A DNA stretch of 64,000 nt from Malacoraja senta. Lineage: Eukaryota. A program made the position numbers and the translations under genes. Location of the stretch: the NCBI GenBank assembly GCA_038087875.1, contig CM075990.1, positions 9,674,001 through 9,738,000 on the forward strand, read 5' to 3'. Shown one piece after another: positions 3,215 to 63,533 of this stretch (positions within the stretch are counted from its first letter, which is position 1; the number at the start of each line of letters is the position of its first letter). The notes under the pieces are model-generated. The model did no database searches. It worked only from the letters and a program-made list of their open reading frames with translations, and was not told the DNA's origin.

Positions 3215-3750
3215 GATGAAGATAAGGCAATGAATGTTGTATACATGGATTTTAGTATGGCTTTTGATAAAGTCCCTCATGGTAGGCTGATCCAGATGAT
3301 TAAGATGCACGGGATTCATGTTGACTTAGTCATATAGATTCAGAACTGGCATATTCATAAAAGTCAGAGGGTTGTGGTGATAGAAAATATCGTACCTCTA
3401 TTTAAGAAGGGCTGCAAGGAAAAGCCTGGGAACTATAGGCCAGTGAGCATAACATCTGTGGTCGGAAAGTTACTGGATAATATTCTGAGGGATAAATATA
3501 TATGTGTTTAGATAGACAAGGGCTGATTAAGGATTGTGAGCACGGTTTTGTACGTGGGAGATCGTGTCTCTCAAATCTGATGGAGTCTTTTTAAGATGAC
3601 CAAAAGGGCCGATGAGGGTGCGTACATGGACAGGATAGGTTTGGAAGGATATGGGCCAAATGCAGGCAGGTGTGACTAGTGTAGATGGTTGGTCGGCATG
3701 GCAAGTTGTGTTGAAGGGCCTGTTTCCAAACTGCATGACTCGATAACTAA
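3215..3750 (+). mobile_element. Degraded CR1 RT fragments plus 3' tail
   Basis: VYMDFSMAFDKVPH-like and VPLFKKGCKEKPGNYRPVS motifs, then a CR1 tail. Confidence 0.8.
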
Positions 3751-4084
3751 TTACTTTGCATGAACCGTGTTTTGTATATTGCCAGCAAGAAATCTGCTAT
3801 CCCTGAGGATGTGAGCAGGTGGTAATCTGGTTTTAAAGTCAAACCTGAAAACAAAACAGCAAGGTTGTAAACTTGCACCATGACACCAACAGGCAGAGTA
3901 TGTATAATTAAAAATTGATGCATTTTGGCTCTTTGGTGAGCTGATATAATTTACCAGAAAATAATGAAATTTTATAAAGGGGTGCCGTCAATGGCTACTT
4001 CATCAACTTAAACATTTCAAACAGTTTTAAATATGTTTTTGGAATGTGGACACTATTACATATAACTAATATGTGATATGTGAA

Positions 4085-5534
4085 GGTACACAAAAATGCT
4101 GGAGAAACTCAGCGGGTGCAGCAGCATCTATGGAGCGAAGGAAATAGGCAACGTTTCGGGCTGAAACCCTTCTTCAGACTGATAGGGGGTGGGGAGAAGA
4201 AAGGAAAAGAGGAAAAAGGCGGAGGAGGAGCCTGAGGGCTGGGGGAGGGGAGGAGACAACCAGAGGGCTGATGAAGGGGAGGGGACAGCAAGGGCTAGCA
4301 GAATTGGGAGAATTCAATGTTCAAGCCCCCAGGATGTAGACTGCCCAAGCGGAATATGAGGTGCATTTCCTCCAATTTACGGTGTTGCTCGCTGTGGCCA
4401 TGGAGGAGACCCAGGACAGAGAGGTCAGATATGGAATGGGAGGGGGAGTTGAAGTGCTGAGCCACCGGGAGGTCAAGTTAGTTATTGCGGACCGACCGGA
4501 GGTCTTCGGCGAAACGATCGCCAAGCCTCCGCTTGGTCTCACCGATGTAGATCAGCTGGCATCTAGAGCAGCGGATGCAATAGATGAGATTGGAGGAGAT
4601 GCAGGTGAACCTCTGTTGCACCTGGAATGACTGCTTGGGTCCTTGAATGGAGTCGAGGGGGGAGGTGAAGGGACAAGTGTTGCATCTCTTGCGGTTGCAA
4701 GGGAAAGTACCAGGGGAGGGGGTGGTATGGGAGGGAAGGGAAGAATTGACAAGGGAGTTACGGAGGGAGCGGTCTTTGCGGAAGGCAGACATGGGGGGAG
4801 ATGGGAAGATGTGGCGAGTGGTGGGGTCACGTTGGAGGTGGCGAAACTGACGGAGGATCACTTGTTGTATGTGACGGCTGGTGGGGTGAAAGGTGAGGAC
4901 TAGGGGGACTCTGTCCTTGTTGTGAGTGGGGGGGATGGGGAGAGAGAGCAGTGTTGTGGGGTATGGCAGAGACCCTGGTGCTAGCCTCATCTATGGTGGA
5001 GGAGGGGAACCCCCGTTCCCTGAAGAATGAGGACATTTCAGATGCCCTGGTGTGGAACGCCTCATCCTGGGAGCAGATGCGGCGTAGACGGAGGAATTGG
5101 GAGTGGGGGATGGAGTCCTTACAGGAAGCAGGGTGGGAAGAAGTGTAGTCCAGATAGCCATGGGAGTCGGTGGGTTTGTAGTGGATGTCGGTAAGGAGTC
5201 TATCACCTTCGATGGAGATAGTGAGGTCAAGGAATGGTAGGGAAGTGTCGGAAATGGTCCAGGTATATTTGAGTGCCGGATGGAAGTTGGTGGTGAAGCG
5301 GATGAAGTCAGTCAGTTGTGTGTGGGTGCAGGATGTGGCACCAAAACAATCATCGATGTAGCGGAGGTAGAGGTCGGGGTTGGGGCCCTGGTACGCATTG
5401 AACAAGGATTGTTCTACGTACCCGACAAAGAGGCAGGCGTAGCTGGGGCCCATGCCTGTGCCCATAGCTACGCCTTGTATTTGGAGGAAATGGGAGGAGT
5501 CAAATGAAAAGTTATTAAGTGTAAGGACCAGCAC
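4085..5534 (-). mobile_element. 5'-truncated Penelope-like element (Neptune-like): RT, Cys-rich linker and GIY-YIG endonuclease, frameshifted
   Basis: QGVAMG and LRYIDD RT motifs (4827-5534); PCNRKRCNTC and IYCIRCSRCQLIYIGET (4478-4990); 14-15 bp TSD atgtgatatgtgaa(g) at 4071-4085 and 5535-5549; hammerhead-like core at ~4149-4178. Confidence 0.92.
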
Positions 5535-10455: not shown

Positions 10456-12794
10456 AAAGAGTAAGAGAAGGCTGCTGTGACTGAGTCTTTCAAAGATCTA
10501 CTCTTGCAGTTAAGTTCCACAGGAATTTCACACTGGAATTAATACATTTCTGCATCTTGCGGCTAAATGGCCAACTACAATCAACCACAGAATTATGGTC
10601 ACATCTCTACATTTTCTCGTCTGAAATTCTGTGCTCTGCTTTGTAAGTCCTATTACAAATCTTGAATATTAGTGAAGTTGTCTACTTAAGTTTAGAAAGA
10701 TATATTTTTATTAAACTACCTGTTTCAAACTTAAACCTGTTTGCAGAACTTACGTAGAACTGACTGAAGTACATGGTCATGCAAAGATTTTGAGATAATG
10801 TATTTTGGGAGTTTTACTTGTTTGTTGTCTTACAAGCAGGAAAAACAAATTGCAATCTTAAAACAAAGTGATGCTCGGTCAACAGTTTGAGGACCATTGC
10901 ACCGAGATCTCATGTTTAAAAAGCAAGTGAAAATGATAGGTACACGAGAAACCACGTTGGCAGCAGTTTTTGAGAATAACTGGAGTGCAAACAGAACTAA
11001 TTTAGCATGGAGACTGATGCACAGTTTGATGAAATCATTAAGTGCAAAAGACATGCTGAGATGTGCAGCCGGTTTAGATAAATGGTGTTTCGATAAGTAC
11101 CTTCCATAGTAGAAGAAGGTTCCCTTCAGTGAATGTTCTGTGCAATATCCCCAGAGGTGATTCAAAGGTAGTATGCGTTTATTGTAGCAAAGTTGTAATG
11201 CTCTAAATTCTGCGTATGTTGGTTATTTTTCAAGAAGTGATCATTCTTGGTGAGTAATGTAATGATTTGATTAAATATATAGGGCTGAAAAGACTGGACT
11301 AGATTTTATAGTAAATGCAACCCATGCAACAACAAAGGAAATTGAAATGAAAAATATTCTGATGAAAATAAATGCCTCTGTGTATTATTTCTTGTGTTGA
11401 CTTGGTAATGTTCTATGTTGGTGTTTTCCATGTAGTATGTGGTGGACATACTGGTCTTGCGATCGTTTCTAATGTTTTCTTTGCTGTTTGGTGGAATTAT
11501 TTGGTTTCAAATAATTGTCTTAGTTCCTCTCTTTGGAAAGAATATTGGAAGTGGTATGCACCACAAATTGATGCCTGGGTCAGCTTCTCTTATCAAAATT
11601 GTACTTAGGTATTTATGAATAATACAATGAAGATTTATTAAGGCAAATTGTAAAAACTTTGACATGAAATGGGTAGGGTTTAATTTAACATGGAGTAGTG
11701 TGAGATAATGCATTTTTTGAGCAGACAAGGAATACAAAAGTGAAGTGGAAATATTGCGACCTCATTCACCGAGTACTGTGTTAAAAATGTAGCCATCTTT
11801 TTGTGTATTTTGTAAATTAAAGACTAAATGTAGACGGAGCAACAAGTTCGTGATAATATTTTACAAGCCGATACCTAGATCAGAGAGTTCTGTTCACTTT
11901 TGGGAGTCCTGCTATGGAGGGGGCATTAAAGTGGAATTGATGAGGATGCCATCAAGGGTGATAAACTATGCTATTGCAAGATACTGAATACTGCAATTAT
12001 TTCTAGTTATAAAAGGATTTGATAGTTTTAAAATGATAACTTTTGATGGGGCGAGTTGGAAAAAACTACTCAGCGAGTTAGCGATGAAGAGTTAGCAATT
12101 TAAATTGCCGTTGAAGGAGAAAATATTTTTCATTGGTACCACACGGAGGAGGAAATTGGTGTTTTGAAGAGGAAGTTTATATATTGCTTTATGCAAGAGC
12201 AATTCCGCAAAAAATAAATTGGGATTATTGTTGCAGCATTAAAATCTGCAACAAATGATTTATTGGCATTTAGCTAATGCAGTAATATAACCTTCAGGAA
12301 TAATTTTCATTGAAAGACAAATGAAAACAGTACAAGGTTGCATTGATTCTGAACAAACGTTCACTTCTGTAAATGTAATTTGCTGTGGATTAGCATGTGA
12401 AGGAACCAAAGTAAAAAGATAATCTGGAATAATTTGAAACATATTTCTGTAAATTAATGAGAATTATGATTTGGTGCAAATTTGCTGCTGCAAGATTATG
12501 AATGTCAATTGGTCGGAAGATGGCATTCTTTGTAATTATGAAAGATAGCATCTATATGTAATCAGTTGGGTAAATTTGACCTGAGTTTTCCAATTTTACA
12601 TAGAAACATAGAAACATAGAAAATAGGTGCAGGAGTAGGCCATTCGGCCCTTCGAGCCTGCACCGCCATTCAATATGATCATGGCTGATCATCCAACTCA
12701 GTATCCTGTACCTGCTTTCTCTCCATACCCCCTGATCCCTTTAGCCACAAGGGCCACATCTAACTCCCTCTTAAATATAGCCAATGAACTGGCC

Positions 12795-15741
12795 TCAACT
12801 ACCTTCTGTGGCAGAGAATTCCAGAAATTCACCACTCTGTGTGAAAAATGTTTTCCTCATCTCGGTCCTAAAAGATTTTCCCCTTATCCTTAAACTGTGA
12901 CCCCTTGTTCTGGACTTCCCCAACATCGGGAACAATCTTCCTGCATCTAGCCTGTCCAACCCCTTTAGAATTTTGTACGTTTCTATAAGATCCCCCCTCA
13001 ATCTTCTAAATTCTAGCGAGTACAAACCGAGTCTATCCAGTCTTTCTTCATATGAAAGTCCTGACATCCCAGGAATCAGTCTGGTGATCCTTCTCTGTAC
13101 TCCCTCTATGTCAAGAATGTCTTTCCTCAGATTACGAGACCAAAACTGTACGCAATACTCCAGGTGTGGTCTCACCAAGACCCTGTACAACTGCAGTAGA
13201 ACCTCCCTGCTCCTATACTCAAATCCTTTTGCTATGAATGCTAACATACCATTCGCCTTCTTCACTGCCTGCTGCACCTGCATGCCTACTTTTAATGACT
13301 GGTGTACCATGACACCTAGGTCTCGTTGCATCTCCCCTTTTCCTAATCGGCCACCATTCAGATAATAGTCTACTTTCCTGTTTTTGCCACCAAAGTGGAT
13401 AACCTCACATTTATCCACATTATACTGCATCTGCCATGCATTTGCCCACTCACCCAGCCTATCAAAGTCACCTTGCAGCCTCCAAGCATCCTCCTCACAG
13501 CTAACACTGCCCCCCAGCTTCGTGTCATCCTCAAACTTGGAGATGTTGCATTCAATTCCCTCGTCCAAATCATTAATATATACCGTAAATAGCTGGGGTC
13601 CCAGCACTGAGCCTTGCGGTACCCCACTAGTCACTGCCTGCCATTGTGAAAAGGACCCGTTTACTCCTACTCTTTGCTTCCTGTCTGCCAGCCAGTTCTC
13701 TATCCACATCAATACTGAACCCCCAATACCGTGTGCTTTAAGTTTGTATACTAATCTCTTATGTGGGACCTTGTCAAAAGCCTTCTGAAAGTCCAGATAT
13801 AACACCAGTCCAGACTGGTTCTCCCTTATCCACTCTACTAGTTACATCCTCAAAAAATTCTATAAGATTCGTCAGACATGATTTACCTTTCATAAATCCA
13901 TGCTGACTTTGTCCAATGATTTCACCACTTTCCAAATGTGCTGCTATCCCATCTTTAATAACTGATTCTAGCAGTTTCCCCACTACCGACGTTAGACTAA
14001 CTGGTCTGTAATTCCCCGTTTTCTCTCTCCCTCCCTTTTTAAAAAGTGGGGTTACATTAGCTACCCTCCAATCCTCAGGAACTACACCAGAATCTAAAGA
14101 GTTTTGAAAAATTATCACTAATGCATCCACTATTTCGGTGGCTACTTCCTTAAGTACTCTGGGATGCAGCCTATCTGGCCCTGGGGATTTATCGGCCTTT
14201 AATCCATTCAATTTACCTAACACCACTTCCCGGCTAACCTGGATTTCACTCAGTTCCTCCATCTCATTTGACCCCCGGTCCCCTGCTATTTCCGGCAGAT
14301 TATTTATGTCTTCCTTAGTGAAGACAGAACCAAAGTAGTTATTCAATTGGTCTGCCATGTCCTTGTTCCCCATGATCAATTCACCTGTTTCTGACTGCAA
14401 GGGACCTACATTTGTTTTAACTAATCTTTTTCTCTTCACATATCTATAAAAGCTTTTGCAGTCAGTTTTTATGTTCCCTGCCAGTTTTCTTTCATAATCT
14501 ATTTTCCCTTTCCTAATTAAGCCCTTTGTCCTCCTCTGCTGGACTCTGATTTTCTCCCAGTCCTCTGGTAGGCTGCTTTTTCTGGCTAATTTGTACACTT
14601 CATCTTTTGTTTTGATACTATCCCTGATTTCCCTTGTTATCCACGGATGCACTACCTTCCCTGATTTATTTTTTTGCCAAACTGGGATGAACAATTGTTG
14701 TAGTTCATCCATGCAGTCTTTAAATGCCTTCCATTGCATATCTACCATCAACCCATTAAGAATCAATTGCCAGTCTATCTTCGCCAATTCACTTCTCATA
14801 TCCTCAAAGTTACCTTTCTTTAAGTTCAGGACCCTTGTTTCTGAATTAACAATGTCACTCTCCATCCTAATGAAGAACTCAACCATATTATGGTCATTCT
14901 TGCCCAAGGGGTCATGCACAACAAGACTGCTAACTAACCCTTCCTCATTACTCAATACCCAATCTAGAATAGCCTGCTCTCTCGTTGGTTCCTCTACATG
15001 TTGGTTTAGAAAACTATCCCGCATACATTCCAAGAAATCCTCTTCCTCAGCACCCTTGCCAATTTGATTCACCCAATCTATATGTAGATTGAAGTCACCC
15101 ATTATAACTGTTTTACCTTTGTTGCATGCATTTCTAATTTCCAGTTTGATGCCATCCCCAACTCCACTACTACTGTTAGGTGGCCTGTACACAACTCCCA
15201 CTAGCGTTTTCTGCCGCTTAGTGTTTCGCAGCTCTACCCATATCGATTCCACATCCTCCAAGCTAATGTCCTTCCTTTCTATTGCGTTAATCTGCTCTCT
15301 AACCAGCAACGCTAACCCACCTCCTTTCCCTTTCTGTCTATCCCTCCTGAATATTGAATATCCCTGGATGTTCAGCTTCCAGCCTTGGTTACCCTGGAGC
15401 CATGTCTCCGTGATCCCAACTATATCATATTCATTAATAGCTATCTGCACATTCAACTCATCCACCTTATTACGAATGCTCCTTGCATTGAGACACAAAG
15501 CCTTCAGGCTTGTTTTTACAACACTCTTACCCCTTATACAATTATGTTGAAAAGTGGCCCTTTTTGATTTTTGCCCTGGATTTGTCTGCCTGCCACTTTT
15601 ACTTTTCACCTTGCTACCTATTGCTTCTACCCTCATTTTACACCCCTCTGTCTCTACGCTCACACATTTAAGAAACCCTTTCCCTTTAACTCCATCCTCA
15701 ACTATCCCATTCGACACCCCACCCCCCTTATTCAGTTTAAA
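12795..15741 (-). pseudogene. CR1 ORF2 (APE endonuclease + RT), frameshifted near 13805 and near 12837
   Basis: ITETWL, VYRPP, GDFN, SPGPD, QHGF, LDFQKAFDKV, GVPQGSVLGP and FEDDTK motifs split across two frames. Confidence 0.92.
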
Positions 15742-16658
15742 ACCACCCGTGTAGCAGTGGCAAACCTGCCTGCCATAATGCTGGTCCCCCACCTGTTAAG
15801 ATGCAATCCATCCCTTTTGTACAGTTCCCTTTTACTCCAAAACAGATCCCAGTGATCTAAGAATCTAAATCCCTGCCCCGTGCACCAGTTCCTCAGCCAC
15901 ACATTCAGGTCCCGTATCTCCCTGTTCCTGCTCTCGCCAGCACGAGGAACTGGAAGCAAACCGGAGATAACAACCCTGGAGGTCCTGCTTTTCAGCATTT
16001 TTCCGAGCTCTCTAAAGTCACACTGCAGAATATTCATCCCCTTCTTTCCGACATCGTTTGTGCCGACATGCACTACCACTTCTGGCTGTTCACCTTCGCC
16101 CTTGAGGATTTTCTGCACTCTGTCCGTGACATCCTGGATCCTGGCACCAGGAAGGCAGCACACCATCCTCGAATCCCGTCTGTTGCCGCAGAAACCCCTG
16201 TCCGTACCTCTCACAATGGAGTCCCCCACAACAATGGCGTTGCCTGACTTTGGCCTTTTTGGTTTTGGCTCAACAGCCCTATTCGCATCGCAAGCCATTC
16301 TGCCGCTCAATGTTAAAACGTCTTCTGTCCCGACAGCTTCTAAGTGGGCGAACCTGTTCACAAGAGGTACAACACACGGGGACGTTTGCATTCCATGCTT
16401 CCCTCCCTTTCTCACTGTCTCCCACCTTCTCTCTTCCAGTACCTTAGGGGTAACAATATTACTGTAGGACTTGTCGAGGAGCGACTCCGTTTCTCGGACA
16501 AACCTGAGGTCATCCACTTGCTTCTCCAGTTCCCCAACACGGTCCTTCAGGAGCTGTACCTGGATGCACTTGTCACATTTGTAGCAGCCAGAGGCACCAG
16601 CAGTGTCCTTGACCTCCCACATACTGCAAGCATCACACTGAATCAGCTTGCCTGACAT
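15732..16658 (-). CDS. CR1 ORF1p: CxxC...CxxC zinc finger, coiled coil, SGNH/GDSL esterase (308 aa from the first ATG)
   Basis: CDAC and CDKC; GDSIVRG, HVGTND and RDGLHLN esterase motifs; intact frame. Confidence 0.9.
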   Translation of the reverse strand: MSGKLIQCDACSMWEVKDTAGASGCYKCDKCIQVQLLKDRVGELEKQVDDLRFVRETESLLDKSYSNIVTPKVLEERRWETVRKGGKHGMQTSPCVVPLVNRFAHLEAVGTEDVLTLSGRMACDANRAVEPKPKRPKSGNAIVVGDSIVRGTDRGFCGNRRDSRMVCCLPGARIQDVTDRVQKILKGEGEQPEVVVHVGTNDVGKKGMNILQCDFRELGKMLKSRTSRVVISGLLPVPRAGESRNREIRDLNVWLRNWCTGQGFRFLDHWDLFWSKRELYKRDGLHLNRWGTSIMAGRFATATRVVLN

Positions 16659-16824
16659 CTCCTTCTTTCGTCTCTCCCTCTGCAGTGTTTTGTGTAGCCT
16701 CCTCGCCGAAGACTCTCGAGCCAAAGACTCACACTTTTCTCACAGGGCCACTCCCTAAGAGCAGTCTTGCTTATATTGACTGATAAATTGCCTAATTTAC
16801 CAATTTACAATCCAAATTCCTCAG

Positions 16825-17240
16825 TTTTCAACTATTTTCCCCGCTTTGACTCACTTCTCTCCTCCCTCTTGGGCTAGAGCCAATCAGTGTTTTCACTTGC
16901 TAATCTTCTCCTGCTGTTGCTTCCAAGTCTACAGCAGCTCTGAGTAAAGTCTGCCTGTGCTTTGCCTCTCCTTTTCAACTGTTTTCCCCCCTCTGACTCA
17001 CTTCTCTCCTCCCTCTTGGGCTAGAGCCAATCAGTGTTTTCTCTTGCTAATCTTCTCCTGCTGTTGCTTCCAAATCTACAACAGCTCTGAGTAAAGTCTG
17101 CCTGTGCTTTGCCTCTCCTTTTCAACTGTTTTCACCCCTCTGACTCACTTCTCTCCTCCCTCTTGGGCTAGAGCCAATCAGTGTTTTCTCTTGCTAATCT
17201 TCTCCTGCTGTTGCTTCCAAATCTACAGCAGCTCTGAGTA
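16825..17240 (-). repeat. ~2.8 tandem 147-bp monomers in the CR1 5'UTR
   Basis: ttttcaact recurs at 16825, 16972 and 17119; units are near-identical. Confidence 0.92.
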
Positions 17241-31429: not shown

Positions 31430-31850
31430 CTTTGGACATAACAGTATGTGTTGGCCTTGGAGGTCATACAGCACTGATTTATGAGAATAATCCTGGGCCT
31501 TAACGGTTCACTTATGAATGAAGGTGACTAATACGGCTTGTATTCTCATGAATTTAGAATGTTGAGAGGTGATCTAATACAGCTTTTTCATATAATGAAA
31601 GGATTTATTAGAATGGACATTGGTAAGTGTTTCCTCTTGTGGGGAGAAGCCAGAACAAGGAAACAAAGCCTTAACATTGAATCTGTTATTCTGAGGATGA
31701 GATTAGGAAGTTTGATTTCAGCAAGAGGTAGTACAAATTTGGAAATTCCCCACCTCCCCCTTGTATTAATTGGAACTTTCAAGAATGAAACTGCAAACTT
31801 TGTTAGGCAACTTCATCTTAGAATTTGGAGTCAAGCCAGGTAAATGAAGA
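31430..31850 (+). mobile_element. Degraded CR1 3' fragment
   Basis: YSHEFRMLRGDLIQLF motif. Confidence 0.7.
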
Positions 31851-36029: not shown

Positions 36030-37150
36030 TAGTTTTTGATTCCCCAACCATGGGACAAAAACTGTGTGTATTCACCCTGTATATGTCCATCTATACAAAC
36101 ACCCCACAGTCTCCTACGCTCCAAGAAATAAAGGTCTAGCCTGCCCAACCTTTCCCTAAGATTCAGTCCCTCGGGTTCTGGCAACATCCTCGTTTATCTT
36201 TTCTACACTCTGTTCATCTCAATGGCATCTGTCCTATGGTGGCAGGGTGGCCAAAACTAAACATAATTCTCCAAGTGCGGCCTTATCAAAATCTTGTATA
36301 ACTATAGCATAATGTTCCAACTTATATACTCAATGTTCTTACTAATGAAGGCCAGTTGTCAAAAGCCTTCTTCACCGCTCGGTCGACTGTGTCACTACTA
36401 GCTGGAAACTATGCACATGCTCCTCGGTCTCATCGTTCTACAACACTCCCCAAGGCCCTACTATTCACTGTGAAAGTTCTACCCTGGTTTGACTTACCAT
36501 AATACAACAGCTTGATGAATTAAATGCAGTTTCCCAATCCTTGGGCCTCTTCCCCAGCTGATTGTGCGTTCACCCTCTCTAATCCCCTCATGATTTTATA
36601 AACCTGGATAAAATCACTCCTTAGCTCCCTGAACTCCAAGGAATAAAGTCCTCACCTGCCCAACCTCACCCTATAGCTCAGGTTCTCGGATCCTGACAAC
36701 ACCTTTGTAAATCTTCTGTGCACTCTTTCCAGCTTAATGACATCTTTCCTGCAATAGGGTGACCAAAACTGAACACAGTACTCCAAGTATGGCTTCACCT
36801 CCATCTTTTAAAACTGTAACATAACATACCAACTCCTATACTTGATACCATGACTGATGAAGGCCAGTGTACCAAAATCCTTATTAACCACCCTATCTAC
36901 TTGCAATGCCACCTTCAGGGAACCATGTACTAGATTCCTCAACACTCCCCCAGGACCCTACCATTTACTGTGAAGGTCCCTGTTTGGACTTCCCAAAATG
37001 CAACCCTTCACACTTACCTGCATTGAACTCCATTAGCCATTCTTCAGCCCACTTGCCCGCCTGATCAAGATCCCATTCTAATTCGTGATACCACCAATTT
37101 TAGTGTCACATGCAAACTTACAAATCATGTCTTGTACATTCTCATCTAAG
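36030..37150 (-). mobile_element. Two adjacent degraded CR1 fragments
   Basis: The same ORF2 segment (accaaaact...ctccaagt; gaaggccagt) appears at ~36250-36355 and again at ~36760-36870. Confidence 0.75.
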
Positions 37151-37530
37151 TGATAGATGCATTTTGTGAAAGAAGAAGTCCAGGCAACAGAAGATGTGCT
37201 TTTGTGCTGTTTTCCTGAAGTATCCAAGTATCCTCCCCTTTCTTAACTGGAATACTGTATAAGATCATTCATATTTACGAAGACCAGATGCAACCCTTGT
37301 GCAAATATTAGCATAGATTTAACTGGCAGTGCAAACAGTCATCTTACATTTTGGCAAATCAATTGAGAATTCAGAGAAAGTAGTTCTGATGAAAGCAAGC
37401 AGACACCTCAAGCTATGCATTTGTTTTTAATTGAAACATGTTTTTGTTTTACAATATTTTACATTAATGAGAATAATATTTAAAATGTCATTGAATAACT
37501 TAAGTTATCTCCATAAATCCTCCTTCATAG

Positions 37531-41230: not shown

Positions 41231-42560
41231 CATTCATATTCCAACATGAAAGTAATGGGTGCAAACATGCAACGATCAACTGTTAATTGGGTTTGTCGGC
41301 CCCACAAGATGTTTGTTTCATTCATATGGATGGAAGGTCACGTGACAGGTCCTCGCGTGCACTAACAATGTTTTCATTAAAGGTGTGGCTCCCTAAAACT
41401 ATTTTTAAAAAACCTCATAGGCAAGGCCTAACTTCGCAATTCCCTTTAATTACCGTGGAATGTAAGAAATACAAACAAATAAGCAAAACAAAAATTGATT
41501 TTTATGTATTTGGAAGTTGGAAGCTGACCTTCAAAAAATAGATTTGGGGATTTGAACATTTGTCCAATAATCAAAAGGTAGTCTCTTTCAATATATTAGT
41601 GTCTGTTGGTCATATATTGCTTCAGGCAATGCAACTTGATCTTTGCAGTGAAAATCACACAGAGAACGGTGGCAAAACGATTCCTACAAACAAGCAAAAC
41701 CAGTGGCAATGCTGGACAGAGAGTAAACATATATTTTTGGTTAGTAAACCTAGGTTTTTATATTTTCAGCATCAGGAATTGAGGCAGACTTCGGTACACC
41801 ATGTCTGTATATTTTATGAGAGTTTCTGTCAAATGCTTGATATCATTTCCTGGATTGAGATTGTTCTTTGCAGAATGTACAAACCAGTTGAACATCTACC
41901 TTATCATGAAGTCCAAATTGCATATTTTTTTTGAGCAACAGGTCAATGGAATTGCAAAAGCATCACTCGACTTATTGAATAGGCTGCCTTCCTTTCAGAT
42001 TTGTGTGGACAAAAGTGATTCTTACCACACATTACATTGGCACTGGCAATCACAATTCTAACAAGATTCACAGTGCTGAAACCATTCAATAACTTCTAAG
42101 AAATCCATAATAGCTAATGTTATTATATTAGCAGCACTTGCCTTTACTAATTTTCTCATTCCAGAATACATAAATAAATTTATGGTTGACGTGCTTCCAC
42201 ATATACACCAAATATAATTCATTAAAATGTCTGTTGATTCATTAAAAAGTTATGAGTATGGCAATGTGCTGGTGTCATCAACTCACTCCCCTTTGAAATG
42301 TGAGTCTAAAATTGATTTAACAATTTCTGTGAACACATTTTATAGCCTCTAAAATTACCCTTCAACATTTCGGCTTGCATATTATATTAAGTTTTTTGTA
42401 AGCAATATAAATTGCAATCTGTAATGCATGACATTTTCAGTCAATTGATATTATACCTGATCAACCAACCATAACATCAAAGGATATTATCAGGCAGCAG
42501 AATGCAGACAATGTGCTCAATGTTTTGATGTCCCTGCATGTGCTTTTAAGCTACAATAAT

Positions 42561-42695
42561 AGACATTATGTGCAGGAGTAGGTCATTCGGCCCTTCGAGC
42601 CAGCACCGCCATTCAATATGATCATGGCTGATCATCCACAATTAATACCCCGTTCCTGCCTTCTCCCATATCCCCTGACTCCGCTATCTTTATTG
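42561..42695 (-). mobile_element. CR1 3' tail-only insertion
   Basis: Matches 12628-12740; tacaataat direct repeat on both sides. Confidence 0.75.
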
Positions 42696-42724: not shown

Positions 42725-44320
42725 GGGCACAAAGTCAGCGGGTCAGGGAGCATCTCTGAAGAACGTGGAAAAATGATGTTTTGGGCCGATATCCTTCAGT
42801 TTGATTGTAGGGGGGAAGAAGAAAGCTGGAAAAGGGGAGAGGCAAGACAAAGCATTACAGTTAATAGGTTGACACAGGCGAGGGGGCAGATGGTTGAAAA
42901 AAGTTCAGAGATAAGAACAATAGGTGTGAGACAGGTTTGAAGTGTGGCGGACTGTTAAGCCTGGGGAAGGAAAGTAGTAAGTGTGGTTATGGATATGGAG
43001 AGGAGAAATAGATGGGCGTACAGGTGGGTCCCAGGGGAGGGAATGGGGAAAGTAGAAAAGAGGGGAGATGGGGAAGAACACAGGGGGAGGAGTTAGTTAG
43101 AGGTGACCTAAAACTGTAGAATTTAACGTTCATACCGTTTGGTTGTAATAAGAAGAAGCGGAATATCCAGTCAGAATATGAGGTGCTGTTCCTCCAGTTT
43201 GTGTGTGGCCTCACTCTGGCAATAGCGGACAGAAGGTCAGTGCGGGAATGGGAAGGAGAATTAAAATGGTTAACGACCAGGAGATCCAGTAGGCCTTGGT
43301 GGACCGAGTGCAAGTGTTCTGCAAAATGGTCGCCAATGTACAGGAGGCCACATCGGGAACACCGGATGCAGTAGATTAGGTTCACATGTACCTCTATCTC
43401 ATCTGGAAGAACTGCTGGGGTCCCTCGATGGAGGTGAAAGAGGAGATATGGGGACAGGTGTTACATCTCCTGTGGTTGCAGGGGAAAGTACCTGTGGAGG
43501 GGATATTTTAGGTGGGAAGGGATGAGTGAACCAAGGTGTTGACGAGAGAGCAGTTTCTGCGGAAGGCAGAGAGAGGTGGAGATGGGAAGATGTGACGGAA
43601 ATGTCGGTATATGATGTGTTGGATAGAAACATAGAAACATAGAAAATAGGTGCACGAGTAGGCCATTCGGCCCTTCGAGTCTGCCCCGCCATTCAATATG
43701 ATCATGGCTGATCATCCAACTCAGTATCCCGTACCTGCCTTCTCTCCATACCCCCTGATCCCCTTAGCCACAAGGGCCACATCTAACTCCCTCTTAAATA
43801 TAGCCAATGAACTGGCCTCAACTACCTTCTGTGGCAGAGAATTCCAGAGATTCACCACTCTCTGTGTGAAAAATGTTTTTCTCATCTCGGTCTTAAAATA
43901 CTTCCCCCTTATCCTTAAACTGTGACCCCTTGTTCTGGACTTCCCCAACATCGGGAACAATCTTCCTGCATCTAGCCTGTCCAACCCCTTAAGATGCAGA
44001 GGCTGGTGGGGTAAAAGATAAAGACACTCTATTCTTGTTCCGTCTGGGGGAAGGCAGAGCAAGAGCAGACCTACTGGACACAGGAGATGCGGGTGAGGGA
44101 TCCATCTATGACAGAAGGGGGAAAGCCAAGTTTATTAGAGAATGGGAACATCTTGGATTTCTGAGAACAGAAAGTCTCATCTTGGAGCAGATGTGGTGGA
44201 GACGTAGGAATTAAGAGTCGGGAATAGTGTCTTTGCAAGTGACAGGGTGGGAGGAAGTGTATACCAGATAACTGTGAGTCGACAAGTTTAAAGTAGACGT
44301 CAGAATGTCTACATAGATTT
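42725..44320 (-). mobile_element. Degraded PLE interrupted by a CR1 insertion
   Basis: NLIYCIRCSRCGLLYIG (42987-43385); collinear with the 4085 PLE on both sides of the insert. Confidence 0.82.
43624..43992 (-). mobile_element. 5'-truncated CR1 of the same family as the 12599 element
   Basis: Near-identical to 12601-12968. Confidence 0.92.
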
Positions 44321-50039: not shown

Positions 50040-50690
50040 ATCGGCCCAACATGCCCTATTTACACTACTCCCACCTGCTTGCATTTGGCCAATATAGCTG
50101 TAAATCTATCCTATCCATATACCTATCCAATGTTTTTAAACGTTGTGATAGTACCTGCCTCAATTATCTCCTCCAGCAGCTCGTTGGTTAGTTGGTTCGA
50201 ACCCGAAACGCTACCCATTCCTTTTTTTCCAGAGATGCTGCCTGACCCGCTGAGTTACTCCAACATTTTATGTCAATCCACAATACTCTAAATGTGGCCA
50301 CATCAATATCTTGTACAACTGTAACATGACCTCCCAACTGCTATACTCAGTACTGATGAAGGTCAATGTGTATAGCATCTTGGCAATCCTATCTACCTGT
50401 GACGCCACTTTCAAGGAACTATTTACCAACATGCCTAGATCCCTCTACTCTACAACACTTGCCAGAACCCTGCCACTCACAGTGTAGGTCCTGCCCTGGT
50501 CAGACTTCCAAAAATGCAACACCTTGTACTTCTCTGTATTAAACTCCATCAACCATTCCTCAGCCCACCTGCCCAAATGATCACAATACTGCTGCAATTT
50601 TGGACAACCATCTTCACTATCTGCAATACCACCCACTTGAGTGTCACCTGCAAACTTACTAATCATGCCTTGTACATTTACATAAAGGTA
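50040..50690 (-). mobile_element. Degraded CR1 with a PLE-derived insert at ~50195-50270
   Basis: ISKFAGDT and WLMEFNTEKYKVLHF motifs. Confidence 0.78.
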
Positions 50691-51974
50691 TCTGATATAA
50701 CGTCTGTAAGATAGCCTATGCACGCCTTTTCAATATAATCGCACTTAAGTTTTGCATTTATGTTTTGCTATTCAAGCGCGTGACTCCACTTGGGCAAAAA
50801 ATGCAAAATGTTTATAAGTAATCTGTTAATTTCCATTCAATAATCTATATCATACAAATTGTATTGTCACTAACCATTCCAATGAAATAAAGAAAAAATA
50901 TTTTTACTGTCTTATTATTTTTCCACCTGTAGCTATATACAGTTTTACAATTTTGAATAGGAATTTGAGGGGGTAAAGCAAGTTCACTTCATTTATTCAA
51001 TATCAGTTTTCTGACAAACTAGTCTCTGGAATGTCCTTGACTGTATCTGGAAGCACAGTACTTTGTGTTCTTAATTTTGATGCTATGATAATAATTGTTA
51101 CTTAGCTTCATAAAGTTTATAGAACTATGCCAACAAAATCTTAACACCAGTTAGTAAGGTAAAATTCTCCTCGTTCAAGAAGGCCGTTTCATTTATATTT
51201 TGAAGTTCTGACTTATTTGAGTCAGGAACTTGACAACGTTTCAGAAATAGCTTGTGTTCATTTGCCATTGAACATTTTGTTTCAATTCACGACTCGTTCA
51301 GGAAAATGTTCTGTAGTCTTGTGTTATTTGTATTAAATTTGTATTGCAAGATATTTAATTTATATGTGAATGTTTGTTGGTAGGAGGGACAAAACGGTTG
51401 TTTTGTTATTAGTATTTTCCTGTAAATTAATGAAGATGGTAAGCTGGAACAAATGTTCGAATTGGTGAATGCCATAGATGGCACCAGTATTGAACTCAAA
51501 AGTTGGCGTAAAATAGGGACGTACAACACGAAAGCAGGTCCTGCGTCCCACTCCTCAGTGCCGAGCAGGTTTTGTAACTGAGCTGTATGTGCCAATGATA
51601 TCTGAATAACCAATACAGTAGGTAGAAATTCAATTAATCGTAATTATTTGATTTTTAATTTTTCAGTGGCTTTCAACAATCCATATTTTCAAAAGTGTCA
51701 TGATTTCTTTGAGCTGCAAATGTGAAGTGCAGCTTAAATCTTATTTCTGTAAGCATTTGCTGTGAAAAGATATTTTTGTGCTACAATATCTTCTGAAACT
51801 CTCGGCTTTACGATGTTCTCCTATCATTTTTCTTTCTTTTCTGTTGAGAAATACTACCAGGCAAATTAAGTGTATTTTACATGATGTGAGTGAATGTTAA
51901 TGGTTGGATTCAAAGCTGTTCTCTAGTCAGTACTTGAATCTCAATTGTTTTGAAATGCAATCCGATAAAACCGG

Positions 51975-55027: not shown

Positions 55028-55267
55028 GTGTAGGAAGGAACTGCAGATGCTGGTTTAAACTGAAGATAGACACAAAAAGCTGAGGTTATTCAGCGGGTCA
55101 GACAGCATCTCTGGAGAAAAGGAGTAGGTGACGTTTCAGGTCGAGACCATTCTTCTTCAGATAATTCTGGTAATTCTTCAGAAGAAGGGTCTGGACCCGA
55201 AACATAATCTATTCCTTTTCTTCAGAGATGCTGTCTGACCTGCTGAGTTACTCCAGCTTTTTCTGTC
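55028..55267. mobile_element. Palindromic PLE-derived element
   Basis: Two inverted arms; 15-bp TSD tattaccagaatatt at 55013-55027 and 55268-55282. Confidence 0.88.
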
Positions 55268-55947
55268 TATTACCAGAATATTACTGGGGCTAAAAGCGTT
55301 AAATTCTGTGGACAGATTCTATGGACTAGTTTTATGTACAAATGAATGTAGATCTAATTGAGGAATGTAAGATGATTAAAGGATTTGATAGAGTGGGCAG
55401 ATGGATCAGTGACATGGATTAGTGTTGAGGGCTAGTGGGTTTTTCTCTGCTGTTGGTTCTCTCGCCATTCTCTCACCATTTCTTAGTGGGTTGTTGGACT
55501 GAAGGTAGTTATAATTAAAGAGACATGAAGCTATAACAGGATGTAAACACTGGGATGAAACTTCTGAAGTTGAATTTTGGATAAATCAATGCAAGTCAGC
55601 AAGCATATTGCAGATTCTAAGGACTTAAGATGGACTTTAGCTGAAGGTTAAAAGAGCCAACAGAAAATTGGAATGACTGGGTCTGGTGATGGACAAGGGT
55701 GTATATGAAGGTTTTTCATTGAAAGTGGATAGTGGGAGTAAGGAAGATAATGGAGTATTATACTTCCAGTTTGCTTTGATTCATTCTGAAATGTTGGAGG
55801 GGCAGGCTGTAGAATTGTTGATATTCATTTTTCCTTATGAAATAGAAGAGACAATGATTTTGGACAAATAACAAAGATTACAAAACTTATGTTCCACCAA
55901 AATTGTTTTAAGTATTTGAATTCATTCTTTTGAAATGACTATGAACC

Positions 55948-57220
55948 TATCGACAAAAACCTGGACCCACTGCAGTTCGCTTACCGTCACAACAGATCAA
56001 CGGTGGATGCGATCTCGCTGGCCCTCCACTCCGCTCTGGACCACTTGGACAACAAAAACTCATATGTCAGGCTGTTATTCATCGATTACAGCTCGCATTT
56101 AATACAATCATCCCCTCCAAGCTGGTTACCAAACTCGCAGAACTGAGTCTCTGCACATCCCTCTGCAATTGGATCCTCGACTTCCTCATTCACAGACCAC
56201 AGTCTGTTCGTATTGGTGGAAATGTGTCAGCCTCGATAACAATCAGCACGGGAGCACCTCAAGGCTGCGTGCTCAGCCCCCTGCTGTACTCACTCTATAC
56301 TCATGATTGCGTAGCCGGACATAGTGCGAACTCCATCATCAAGTTCGCTGACGACACCACTGTCGTGGGACGTATCACTGATGGGGATGAGTCAGAGTAT
56401 AGAAGAGAGATCGAGCAACTGTCCATATGGTGCCAGCACAATAACCTGGCCCTCAACACCAGCAAAACCAAGGAACTGATTGTGGACTTTGGAAGGAGTA
56501 GGATGGGGACCCACAGTCCCGTTTATATCAACGGGTCGATGGTTGAAAGGGTCAAGAGCTTCAAATTCCTGGGCGTGCACATCTCTGAAGATCTTTCCTG
56601 GTCCGAGAACACTGATGCCATTATTAAGAAAGCACATCAGCGCCTCTACTTCCTGAGATGATTACGGAGAGTCAGTTTGTCAAGGAGGACTCTCTCTAAC
56701 TTCTACAGGTGCACAGTAGAGAGCATGCTGACTGGTTGCATCGTGGCTTGGTTCGGCAACTTGAGCGCCCTGGAGAGGAAAAGACTACAAAAAGTAGTAA
56801 ACACTGCCCAGTCCATCATCGGCTCTGACCTCCCTTCCATCGAGGGGATCTATCACAGTCGCTGCCTCAAAAAGGCTGGCAGTATCATCAAGGACCCACA
56901 CCATCCTGGCCACACACTCATCTCCCTACTACCTTCAGGTAGAAGGTACAGGAGCCTGAAGACTGTAACGACCAGGTTCAGGAATAGCTACTTCCCCACA
57001 GCCATCAGGCTATTAAACCTGGCTCGGACAAAACACTGAACTTTATTAGCCAATTAACTGTTATTTGCACTTTACCAGTATATTGATTCATGTGTGTATA
57101 TATTTATAGAATGCCTTGTAGTCAATGCCTACTATGTTCTGTTGTGCTGAAGCAAAGCAAGAATTTCATTGTCCTATCAGGGACACATGACAATAAACTC
57201 ACTTGACTTGACTTGACTTG
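55948..57220 (+). mobile_element. Young 5'-truncated Rex1/Babar LINE
   Basis: [19 protein letters not shown] and [10 protein letters not shown] motifs; in-frame stop at 56659; (acttg)n tail. Confidence 0.93.
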
Positions 57221-59663: not shown

Positions 59664-62600
59664 AATTTAACCCACAAATTTAACCCACAAATTTTGAACG
59701 AAAGATCATGCCAGGAATATCTTATTAAACAGCCAGGAATATCTTATTAAACAGATTCAAATATTTTTTGAGGTAAATGACAACCCTGACACACCTACTT
59801 CTCTTATGTGGGAAACGTTTAAAAGCGTTTGTTCGAGGTGCATTAATTTCTGCCCAAGTATTTTATAATAAAGAGAACAGGATTAAACAACAAACATTGG
59901 AAAGGGAAATCAAGCAACTAGATATAGAAAATGCGAGAATGCCATCTATATTAAAACATAATAAAATTGCTGTGTTGAAATATAAATTAAACAAAATGTA
60001 TTCAGAACAAGTAATAAAACTTTATCAAAAAACCAAACAATTACATTTCGAGTTTGGAGACAAACCACAAAAACTATTAGCACGTCAGTTACGAAAAATA
60101 ATTCATAAAATTAGAACAGAGACAGGAGAATTATCAAAAATGCCCAAGGATATAAACGAGAGATTTCTCCAATACTATCATAATCTTTATTCAACTAAAA
60201 CTGTAGTACAACCAGAAGGAATAGCAGATTTTTTACTAAAATGTAATTTAAAAGGTTTAGACTCAAACGATAGAGAATTATTAGAAGGGGAGATTACGAT
60301 AAAGGATATTGAAGAGTCTATTGGCTCTTTAAAAAATGGTAAAGCAGTAGGACCAGATGGTTTAGGCTCTGAATTCTATAAAATATTTTATTACTTGCTC
60401 TCCCCACGTTTACAAAGGCTGTATGAGCATATCTATACTCAACAGAAACTTCCAGATACTTTAAATGAATCTATAATAACACTTATTCCTAAAGTTGATA
60501 AAGATCCGGAAGATCCGGGATCATATAGAGCAATTGCACTTTTAAATACAGATCAGAAAATATTAACTAAAATACTAGCGCATAGATTAAGTACAGTGAT
60601 GAATAAATTAATACACCCTGACCAAACAGGCTTTATTCAGAAACGGTACTCATATTATAATCTAAGAAGATTATTTAATATTATATATTCTAAGAGAATT
60701 ATTAATGAAGATCTAGCAATAATCTCACTTGACGCTGAAAAAGCTTTTGATCAGGTTGAATGGTCCTATTTATTTTCGGTGATGGAAAATATGCAACTAG
60801 GGGAGAAATTCTGCACATGGATAAAACTGTTATATACAAACCCTACGGCTAGAATATTAACAAACCAAAGGTTGTCATCTAAATTCAGCCTATCTAGAGG
60901 TTGTAGACAAGGATGCCCGTTATCTCCATTATTATTTGCGCATGCTATTGAGCCACTCGCAGAAAGAGTTAGGGGTCATCCGGAAATACATGGGTATAAC
61001 ACAAAGGATACAGTGAATAAAATTTCTCTATACGCAGATGATGTACTAATTTACATTACTAAACCAGAAATTAGTATTCCAAACTTATTAAAGTTAATAA
61101 CCCAATTTGGTTCACTCTCAGGATACAGAATAAATTGGAATAAAAGTGAAATTATGCCAATAAGGGAACACAACAAACAGATAATACAACAATTTCCATT
61201 TAAAATAGTAAACGAAAAATTCAAATACCTAGGCATTTACGTAACTAAGATATATACATCATTATTTAAAGCAAATTTCCCCCCATTACTGAACAAACTA
61301 CATAAGAATATTCAATATTGGAAAACACTTCCTATCTCAATGGTTGGCAAAATTAATGCCATAAAAATGATTTTTTTACCGCAAATATACCCTTTTCAGA
61401 CAATTCCGATATATTTGTCAAAAAACTTTAAAAAAAAATTGGATTCCATTGTTAATGATTTTATCTGGGATTATAAGAATCATAGGATAAACAAAAGACA
61501 TTTGTGTAAATCAAAAATAAATGGAGGCTTGGTTTTACCAAACTTTCTGTTTTATTTTTGGGCAGTTAATATTAAAAATATGAATTTCTGGTTGGAAGAA
61601 ATAGATCAACAACCAGATTGGTTAAAAATGGAAAAGGAAGATTGTTTACCTTTTGATATCGGCTCGATATTATTTGCTACGTCTAAATTAAACAAAAAAA
61701 ATTATATGGAAAACCCTTTAATATTTAGTGCTATACAAATTTGGAAACAATTAAAAAAGACATTAAAATTAGATAACTTATCACTTTTTCTTCCAATTGT
61801 GAATAACCCTTTGTTTAAGCCCTCATGGTTGGACAGGGGTTTTACACAATGGAAGAATTATGGAATTAAAAATATGGGACAACTTTACAAGGAAGGCACT
61901 TTTCTTACATTTCAGGAGTTGCAACAGACTTATGGACTTCGAGGAAATGATTTTTTCAGATATCTTCAACTCAGAGATTATGTAAAATCGAATACTCAAA
62001 ATTTTTGAATTAGAAATTCAGAAATTCTTGATGAATGTTGGAATAAACATCCTAATACAGAAAAATTAATATCTTATATATATAATATTTTATTAGACAG
62101 TGACATTCCATCGACGGACTTACACAGACAAACATGGGAAAAAGAATTAAATCAAATAATAACGAAAGATACTTGGGAAGAAAGTTTACAACACATACAT
62201 CAATGTTCATTAAATGCCAGACATTCTTTAATACAATTTAAAGTAATACATAGGTTACATTATTCAAAAACAAAATTACATAAAATCTTTCAACATATCT
62301 CACCTATATGTGATATATGTCAACATTTAGAAGCTAACTTATCTCATATGTTTGCAAACTGTATAAAAATTAAAAAATTCTGGGTAAATATTTTCAGTAT
62401 AATATCTAAAGTGACCAGCACACAATTGGACCCGGATCCAAAATTAATAATACTCGGAACATTAGAATTAAATCAAACATTTACAACAACACAAAGAAAC
62501 TTTATTGATTATAGTATAATAACGGGACAAAAATTAATTCTAAAATTTTGGAAAGGCCCTATAACCCCCACAATCAAAATGTGGATTATAGAAATGACGG

Positions 62601-63533
62601 AGACCTTAAACGTGGAAAGAATCAGATTTTCCCTGTTGGACAAACAGGAATTATTTGTTGGAAGGTACACAAAAATGCTGGAGAAACTCAGCGGGTGCAG
62701 CAGCATCTATGGAGCGAAGGAAATAGGTAACGTTTCGGGCCGAAACCCTTCTTCAGACTGATAGGGGGTGGGGAGAAGAAAGGAAAAAAGGAAAAGGAGG
62801 AGGAGGAGCCCGAGGGTGGGGGGAGGGGAGGAGACAACCAGATGGCTGATGAAGGGGAGGGGACAGCCAGGGCTAGCAGAATTGGGAGAATTCAACGTTC
62901 AGGCCACCAGGGTGTAGACTGCCCAAGCGGAATATGAGGTGCATTTCCTCCAATTTACGGTGTTGCTCGCTGTGGCCATGGAGGAGACCCAGGACAGAGA
63001 GGTCAGATACGGAATGGGAGGGGGAGTTGAAGTGCTGAGCCACCGGGAGTTCAGGTTGGTTATTGCGGACCGACCAGAGGTGTTCGGCGAAACGATCGCC
63101 AAGCCTCCGCTTGGTCTCACCGATGTTGGAACATGGTCTCCCTTTATTGATTATTTAAAGGGTCAGAATGGTTCAGCACAGGAACCTGACTAACACTCGG
63201 GCTAAAGAATGGATGAAATGTTATACTCTGAAATGTACGAATATATCTCGAACAAAGTTTTTTATCTTAATACATTTTTCTATTCTTCTTTAACTATCTT
63301 TTTCTTTTCTGTTTTCTTTTATTATTATTATTTTTTTTTTTTTCCTTTCTCTTTTCTTTCTTTACTTCATCTATCTTTTTAGTTCTATCTAGTTTAAAAA
63401 AAACAAAAAAAGGCAAAAGGTATTGGAGACAATGTAATAATAATTGACAATATTATCAATTTAAAAATGTAAGACTGGTAATGATGATAATATGTTGTGT
63501 ACTTATCTCCAATAAAAAATATTTTTAAAAAAA
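59664..63533 (+). mobile_element. 5'-truncated fish-type L1 LINE (ORF2 RT, premature stop at 62008, Cys-rich C-terminus, A-rich tail)
   Basis: GPDG, HPDQTGF, LDAEKAFD, RQGCPLSP, LYADD and WSPF motifs; AATAAA plus A-tail; imperfect TSD agaa(a/g)cttct at 59654-59663 and 63534-63543. Confidence 0.93.
62664..63123 (-). mobile_element. 5'-truncated PLE nested in the L1 ORF2 C-terminus
   Basis: Near-identical to 4085-4545; 8-bp TSD tgttggaa at 62656-62663 and 63124-63131. Confidence 0.92.

Follow-up and report, generated by a model that had tools for sequence, protein, structure and literature searches.

How the second open reading frame (ORF2) of a bicistronic long interspersed nuclear element (LINE) RNA is translated has long been an open question (PMC3708506 and PMC5009743, both in excerpt), and the junction between the two frames of a CR1-type LINE in Malacoraja senta bears on it directly. 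The element lies in a 64,000-nt stretch of assembly GCA_038087875.1 (contig CM075990.1, positions 9,674,001 to 9,738,000 of the forward strand), which is referred to here as the window and to which all coordinates refer; it is a near-full-length but inactivated copy of about 4.6 kb on the minus strand (12598–17240). A first, sequence-only reading had noticed a slippery heptamer and G-tracts at the ORF1/ORF2 junction and proposed that ORF2 is made as a gag-pol-like fusion to ORF1 rather than by reinitiation. Our analysis indicates that the junction is a real, conserved signal, most likely for −1 ribosomal frameshifting that joins ORF1 to ORF2 in esterase-type CR1 LINEs, and from the sequence comparisons below we consider it highly probable that these elements make ORF2 in this way, as an ORF1–ORF2 fusion.

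On the minus strand ORF1 ends GTT TTA AAC TGA, and its last two codons are the second and third elements of an in-phase slippery heptamer, U_UUA_AAC (15735–15741), which is directly followed by the TGA stop (15732–15734). The −1 frame reads TTT AAA CTG AAT AAG from 15741 (protein FKLNKGGG...) and is open from 15795 to 13774, running without a stop from the heptamer through the first ORF2 ATG and into the APE endonuclease and reverse transcriptase (RT) domains. A spacer of 7 nt (15734–15728) separates the heptamer from a G6-T-G4 tract (15717–15727), and further G-tracts lie more distally (15676–15708), namely GGG at 15708–15706 and GGG-AAA-GGG at 15684–15676. The ORF1 end, the phase of the heptamer, the open −1 frame, the spacer and G-tracts, a GTG at 15792 and an in-frame ATG at 15636 all agree with what the sequence-only reading had described. 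The TTTAAAC 7-mer alone is frequent, with 22 copies on the two strands of the window; under ORF1 codon usage the probability of a canonical X_XXY_YYZ at any one codon position is about 0.002, and the element's three ORF segments, 1,359 codons in all, contain four in-phase canonical heptamers, the junction site included. The same 7-mer also turns up in alignments of bird CR1 ORF2, close to the 3′ end (PMC4316615 supplement) and away from the junction, which calls for caution in motif-only searches.

Conservation of the site was evaluated first of all from the C-terminal tails of ORF1 homologues. From one set of 134 matches the top 120 were taken and from another of 10,336 the top 150, giving 258 distinct proteins including the query, and exclusion of 63 proteins without a recognizable catalytic DxxH block left 195 tails for comparison. 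Leu-Asn-stop (LN-stop) closed 102 of the 195 tails and 63 of the 70 with at least 45% core identity, most of the seven exceptions being truncated or frameshifted copies, and the named proteins ending in this way came from sharks, rays, coelacanth, teleost, frogs, turtles, lizards, snake and a sturgeon-named family. The distance from DxxH to the end varied from 22 to 39 aa with LN always at the stop, indicating that LN is tied to the stop rather than to the fold. The heptamer predicts a T as the last base of the codon before Leu, and E, K, Q, M or W should therefore not occur at that position. These five residues directly preceded LN in 1 of 102 tails, as compared with 44 and 39 of 102 at the two preceding positions; when tails were grouped into clusters, which are not phylogenetically independent, the counts were 0/51 versus 24/51 one position earlier at 80% identity (Fisher p 3e-9) and 0/27 versus 10/27 at 70% identity (p 7e-4). 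Twelve different residues were found before LN, so the position itself is not a conserved residue.

The more distant homologues follow the same logic with other residues. Among those ending in GN, Q preceded GN in 9 of 10, as compared with 0 of 51 clusters for Q before LN, and these QGN ends would fit the heptamer G_GGA_AAC. A further 26 tails, one of them from the crab Scylla, carry KN at a comparable place, in each case preceded by a residue that a codon ending in A can encode, and would fit A_AAA_AAC. Together with U_UUA_AAC, these two are named with the heptamers on which mammalian ribosomes shift most readily (PMC5009743, in excerpt). In one distant group (P0088–P0119 and P0333–P0382) ORF1 runs about 5–13 residues beyond the conserved Lys-Asn, and a slip site there would thus not abut the stop. 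Some CR1 proteins of the set (P0018, P0136, P0033 and P0132) carry misleading source names, among them a Pseudomonas aeruginosa hydrolase, a Carnobacterium protein, a ribosomal S24 isoform and a hydroxyacid oxidase isoform, which reflect contamination or gene-model fusion.

DNA of relatives was available from 16 loci in metagenome contigs, one of which, L001 (35% ORF1 identity), is a close CR1 relative that reads CAT TTA AAC TAG and has an open −1 frame. The other 12 of the 13 metagenome loci examined at the ORF end (L001–L013) showed no heptamer and no ORF2 match, genome contigs yielded four distant SGNH loci only, and viral contigs, plasmids and phages gave no relatives. Proteins that cross the junction represent seven further lineages (P0457/59/61, of 998 aa; P0132; P0041; P0077; P0114; P0281, from painted turtle; and a Ranitomeya group), and P0416 (974 aa) belongs to the family of L001. 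The −1 frame was open into ORF2 in the window, L001, P0416, P0457/59/61, P0132, P0041, P0114 and the P0141 group. At the slip site it began with FKL in eight of nine lineages and with VKL in the ninth, a frog group; FKL in the −1 frame combined with LN-stop in the ORF1 frame spells out U_UUA_AAC. The fourth −1-frame residue was always one with codons starting in A or G, as, on our reading, the 0-frame stop demands. The heptamer and its phase are kept across lineages, as the proposal of a fusion had called for, the evidence being DNA for the window and L001 and protein for the rest. Longer fused proteins (603–2000 aa) were also sought and gave three weak, unrelated matches, which is weak evidence either way, and the GN group yielded no fused protein of the GKL type.

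The start codon of ORF2 behaves differently from the heptamer, and in the junction comparison the AUG was scattered or absent. No Met occurred between the slip codon and the endonuclease in any of three rows of the P0457 family, where the first Met lies 166 codons on, or in four of five rows of the L001 family, and the intact 974-aa and 998-aa ORF2 frames are Met-free over this interval. In L001 itself the first in-frame ATG is inside the endonuclease, eight codons past its first conserved Asn, and in three of five rows of the frog group the only Met is at the first endonuclease strand. The other lineages carry a linker Met 18, 22, 24, 25, 35 or 43 codons after the slip codon. Of 120 ORF2-like proteins, 12 start at or inside the endonuclease, a figure not used as a count; gene callers take GTG and TTG starts, and most of these proteins come without a linked ORF1.

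Variation among close copies was assessed in contigs from three sequencing runs (12,879, 16,707 and 6,520 contigs) covering 15400–16000; run X21, with 2 reads, was uninformative. No indel reached 3% in this interval across the contigs of the three runs, and none of 40 variant rows fell in 15732–15741 or in the ATG at 15636, a test limited by the remaining 43 of the 83 rows. One base outside the heptamer, at 15742, a Val to Ala change was present in about 39% of the depth of one run. At 15734, 34 contigs share a loose end (agreement 0.57) that reveals a sister subfamily, which has TAG as its stop, a different spacer and a long G-run.

From the geometry of the junction, its conservation and the lack of a conserved AUG, which we take as established, we infer a slip, a fusion product and a ratio between products as follows. 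When ribosomes translating ORF1 arrive at U_UUA_AAC, the last two codons would be occupied by tRNA-Leu and tRNA-Asn. The majority would terminate at the adjoining stop and release ORF1p (308 aa), while a minority would slip one base back, re-pair on UUU AAA and continue through the linker, endonuclease and RT to give a fusion of about 1,290 aa with the probable junction ...RVVLN-LNKGGG.... ORF1p and the fusion would then be made at a low fixed ratio. The gag-pol-like fusion first proposed is supported as far as sequence goes, by the conserved heptamer and phase, the open −1 frame and the unconserved AUG, and the slip itself is what these sequence features would predict.

Several observations weigh against this reading. 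The full junction DNA is that of two loci, the window and L001, the rest being deduced from proteins, and the GN and KN groups are known from protein alone, with neither DNA nor genomic context. The tails that did not end in Asn number 74 of 195, so not every esterase ORF1 has the site; helix ends carry residue preferences of their own, which limits the tail statistics, as do the relatedness of the clusters and the fact that the query and alignment A1 are themselves LN-ending. The VKL of the frog group implies G_UUA_AAC, with an imperfect first position. Some linker Met is present in six of nine lineages, in at least some copies, and in the window copy an in-frame ATG stands upstream of the endonuclease, its Met being matched in P0127. 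A stimulatory RNA structure was not found either: the local fold of the 91 nt downstream of the heptamer is weak (z −1.55), an Rfam scan returned nothing relevant, and the ViennaRNA minimum free energy (MFE) folds with G-quadruplexes allowed predicted none in either the window or L001. A long-range duplex between the G-tract and the 3′ tail, at −18.8 kcal/mol, was weaker than the best site in 20 of 20 shuffled elements and was rejected.

These last results bear on what might stimulate the shift. Almost no C occurs downstream of the heptamer, and this near-absence together with the z of −1.55 speaks against a local stem-loop or pseudoknot at the junction; the 3′-tail partner of the G-tract is, by prediction, already paired within the tail hairpin. 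The sequence-only reading had coupled frameshifting to a quadruplex of the G-tracts, and of this pairing the frameshift geometry and its conservation hold, whereas the quadruplex does not fare well. A frameshift that is real and driven by an RNA G-quadruplex, a special case of the favoured explanation, is in our estimate rather unlikely, even though the highest G4Hunter score of the element (2.0) starts 4 nt after the heptamer, the spacer is 7 nt, the sister subfamily behind the loose end at 15734 has a long G-run, and synthetic quadruplexes stimulate −1 shifts by up to 7% (PMC3919603, in excerpt). In that same excerpt activity drops with fewer tiers and already at total loops of 6–10 nt, whereas the loops required by a three-tier quadruplex here measure about 1, 8 and 21 nt, or about 30 nt in total. 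L001 has one G6 run only, with a G4Hunter score of 1.16 and without the distal G-tracts, and four conserved short-loop G3 tracts at 5–9 nt are found in neither locus.

What the lineages have in common is smaller. Gly occupied codon 7 of the −1 frame in eight of nine lineages (background 12%; nominal p 4e-7 for lineages that are related), and the residues before it have codons able to end in G, which points to a short G-run after a 10-nt spacer as the shared feature; in the window this core is at +11 to +13 from the heptamer (15724–15722). The likeliest stimulators, suggested with reserve, may be a pause at the adjoining stop plus this short G-run 10 nt downstream; neither a classical pseudoknot nor a three-tier quadruplex stands out.

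An explanation that does away with the slip is that ORF2 is made separately by reinitiation after the ORF1 stop, at a linker AUG or independently of AUG, with LN-stop being a C-terminal motif of the protein. The in-frame ATG, the first of ORF2 (15634–15636), has A at −3 and is common to the related family P0127, so reinitiation, which the sequence-only reading had left open, may serve as a minor or alternative route; an AUG-independent ORF2 start has been proposed for mammalian L1 (PMC5009743, in excerpt), and L334 and N335 are invariant in alignment A1. This ATG stands, however, 95 nt after the stop (119 nt in L001) and 35 codons after the slip codon, behind three out-of-frame ATGs (15710, 15695 and 15667; span 15665–15710) that had been overlooked at first, of which the one at 15695, with A at −3 and G at +4, is in a strong context. 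Linker Met is scattered or missing among the lineages, as described above, and neither the window nor L001 has an overlapping or adjacent stop and AUG of the SART1 type. Reinitiation also leaves unexplained the third-base constraint, the Q-G-N and K-N switches and FKL, and the heptamer is not predicted by an L1-type AUG-independent start. As for a protein motif, LN ends the last helix of the structure model at a predicted local distance difference test (pLDDT) score of about 65 and the match to the solved ZfL2-1 esterase stops at profile position 311 of 315, suggesting that the fold does not need LN. Taken together, we regard reinitiation as the main route as improbable.

Less credible still is a start of ORF2 inside the 3′ end of ORF1, by backward reinitiation or internal initiation in the −1 frame, with LN-stop and FKL kept by dual coding. 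Gene callers do begin ORF2 25 and 30 codons before the slip codon in P0416 and P0457, but L001 has GTG and not ATG there, which makes a prokaryotic gene-caller choice likely, and the −1 frame of the window opens just 18 codons upstream with no Met. Slippage of RNA polymerase on the T4A3 run, adding a base in some transcripts and fusing the frames without a ribosomal slip, is the least plausible explanation: in several genomic copies an indel, located at the site or a little upstream, has fused the frames (P0041, P0077, P0114, P0132 and P0281), but these are single dead insertions, the runs are short, the conserved pattern is a codon-phased X_XXY_YYZ and not a long homopolymer, and the contigs show no indel of at least 3%.

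Programmed −1 ribosomal frameshifting (PRF) is standard in viruses and long terminal repeat (LTR) elements. The proposed CR1 signal resembles that of coronaviruses (U_UUA_AAC) and of retroviral gag-pol in having the same heptamer, placed in phase where the upstream ORF ends and near a 0-frame stop, with the polymerase in the −1 frame; it differs in that CR1 is a non-LTR element, the stop abuts the heptamer, neither pseudoknot nor stable hairpin was found and there is no protease to split the fusion. A close 0-frame stop raises frameshifting efficiency in SARS-CoV-2 (PMC8168617, in excerpt). Two APE-type non-LTR elements of Dictyostelium, TRE5-A and TRE3-A, reportedly depend on a −1 frameshift to make ORF2 (PMC5911963, in excerpt), but these are amoebal, targeted to tRNA genes and have an unrelated ORF1. 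Another non-LTR element, HeT-A, needs a frameshift for its gag (Atkins review, in part). SART1, with UAAUG termination-reinitiation (PMC3708506, in excerpt), and mammalian L1 (PMC5009743, in excerpt) share with CR1 a bicistronic LINE RNA and low ORF2 output; unlike them, the CR1 junction has no overlapping stop and start, and ORF2 would be fused to ORF1. [quoted passage not shown]

We found no paper proposing a −1 frameshift for CR1 in a search that did not extend to the founding CR1 papers, most subscription papers or Repbase notes, and an earlier printed suggestion is quite possible. The excerpts of PMC11835228, PMC6609765, PMC4255032 and PMC3708506 contained no such proposal, the word 'frameshift' is absent from the main texts of PMC4120745, PMC3905857 and PMC8665684, and 'CR1' is absent from the first 300,000 of the 449,034 characters of the Atkins review. 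As for junction DNA in supplements, PMC4120745 gave no matches, PMC4316615 gave four, all in 3′ ORF2 alignments (one file unsearched), and PMC6523648 holds tables only. The link to frameshifting appears unreported for vertebrate LINEs, although it has quite possibly been suggested earlier in print.

The remaining anatomy places the element among esterase-type CR1s. Its 5′ untranslated region (UTR; 16825–17240) is built from a 147-bp unit repeated 2.8 times in tandem (97% match); every monomer carries, on its other strand, a CCAAT-like site, and the arrangement resembles monomeric LINE promoters. ORF1 (15732–16658), in a frame open from 16739 to 15732, encodes 308 aa from the ATG at 16658, the Met at which homologue matches start, and ends ...RVVLN-stop; it contains a Cys-pair motif, a coiled coil, for which the structure model predicts a long helix at 56–96, and an SGNH esterase (Pfam PF13472) that matches structure 4C1B (E 8e-43). 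Its best named homologue is a Leucoraja protein (90%). The 5′ part of ORF2 (13774–15741) comprises a linker, of 84 codons from the slip site to the first conserved endonuclease Asn, the APE endonuclease (PF03372/PF14529) and the start of the RT (PF00078), and the rest of the RT is in a different frame (12795–13841). This frame break near 13800, which had gone unnoticed at first, shows that the copy is dead. The 3′ tail (12598–12700) has a predicted nested hairpin, likely the RT recognition site, ahead of 3.8 copies of an 8-bp unit (12598–12626) in place of poly(A), which we take to be a typical CR1 trait. AAAATT on both flanks may be a target duplication.

An APE-then-RT ORF2, a zinc-finger/leucine-zipper and SGNH esterase ORF1 and an 8-bp repeat tail are all present, and the assignment to CR1 rather than L2 is a putative one, made from anatomy and homologues. 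Subgroup 7 of CR1, with ORF1 of type IVB (PMC4120745, in excerpt), is alike in its Cys-pair/coiled-coil/SGNH ORF1, APE and RT ORF2, octamer tail and vertebrate homologues. Elsewhere in the window, this CR1 family or close relatives have left 3′-end fragments at 43623–43994, 42559–42678 and 9–92 (96%, 88% and 82% to 12600–12969), and more RT fragments at 3218–3597, 36089–37191, 50280–50699 and 31448–31705. An AT-rich LINE-like frame on the plus strand (59777–62761) encodes 743 aa that include an RT domain (Pfam E 2e-39) and resumes past a stop for 250 aa with a Cys/His-rich end and an L1/Tx1-like look, and an RT fragment at 55945–56880 (plus strand) with an ALKBH8_N (PF09004) match at its end belongs to a different LINE lineage. 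The window also holds a 467-bp repeat pair (4082–4548 and 62661–63126; 96% identity) and many interspersed repeats of 85–200 bp, some palindromic (2641–2736 and 55066–55270).

A broader version of the frameshift reading, which we offer tentatively and hold to be unlikely as a whole, is that the esterase-type CR1s of jawed vertebrates and of more distant animals would all use a −1 frameshift fusion, with U_UUA_AAC, G_GGA_AAC and A_AAA_AAC swapped in evolution and a structure-free signal made of the abutting stop and a G-run at a 10-nt spacer. The G-run would be read by a protein, either a host G-tract binder or ORF1p with feedback on the ORF1:ORF2 ratio, and the fusion would recruit the RT into the ORF1p particle via the coiled coil.

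In the chicken genome no repeat is more abundant than CR1 (PMC11835228, in excerpt), which is also widespread in other vertebrates. If −1 frameshifting is true for these elements, CR1 would solve ORF2 translation as retroviruses and coronaviruses do, and its junction may be a natural frameshift signal without RNA structure. ORF2 annotations that begin at the first Met would then be wrong, some of them cutting into the endonuclease, and the functional CR1 RT would bear ORF1, with its coiled coil and esterase, at its N-terminus.

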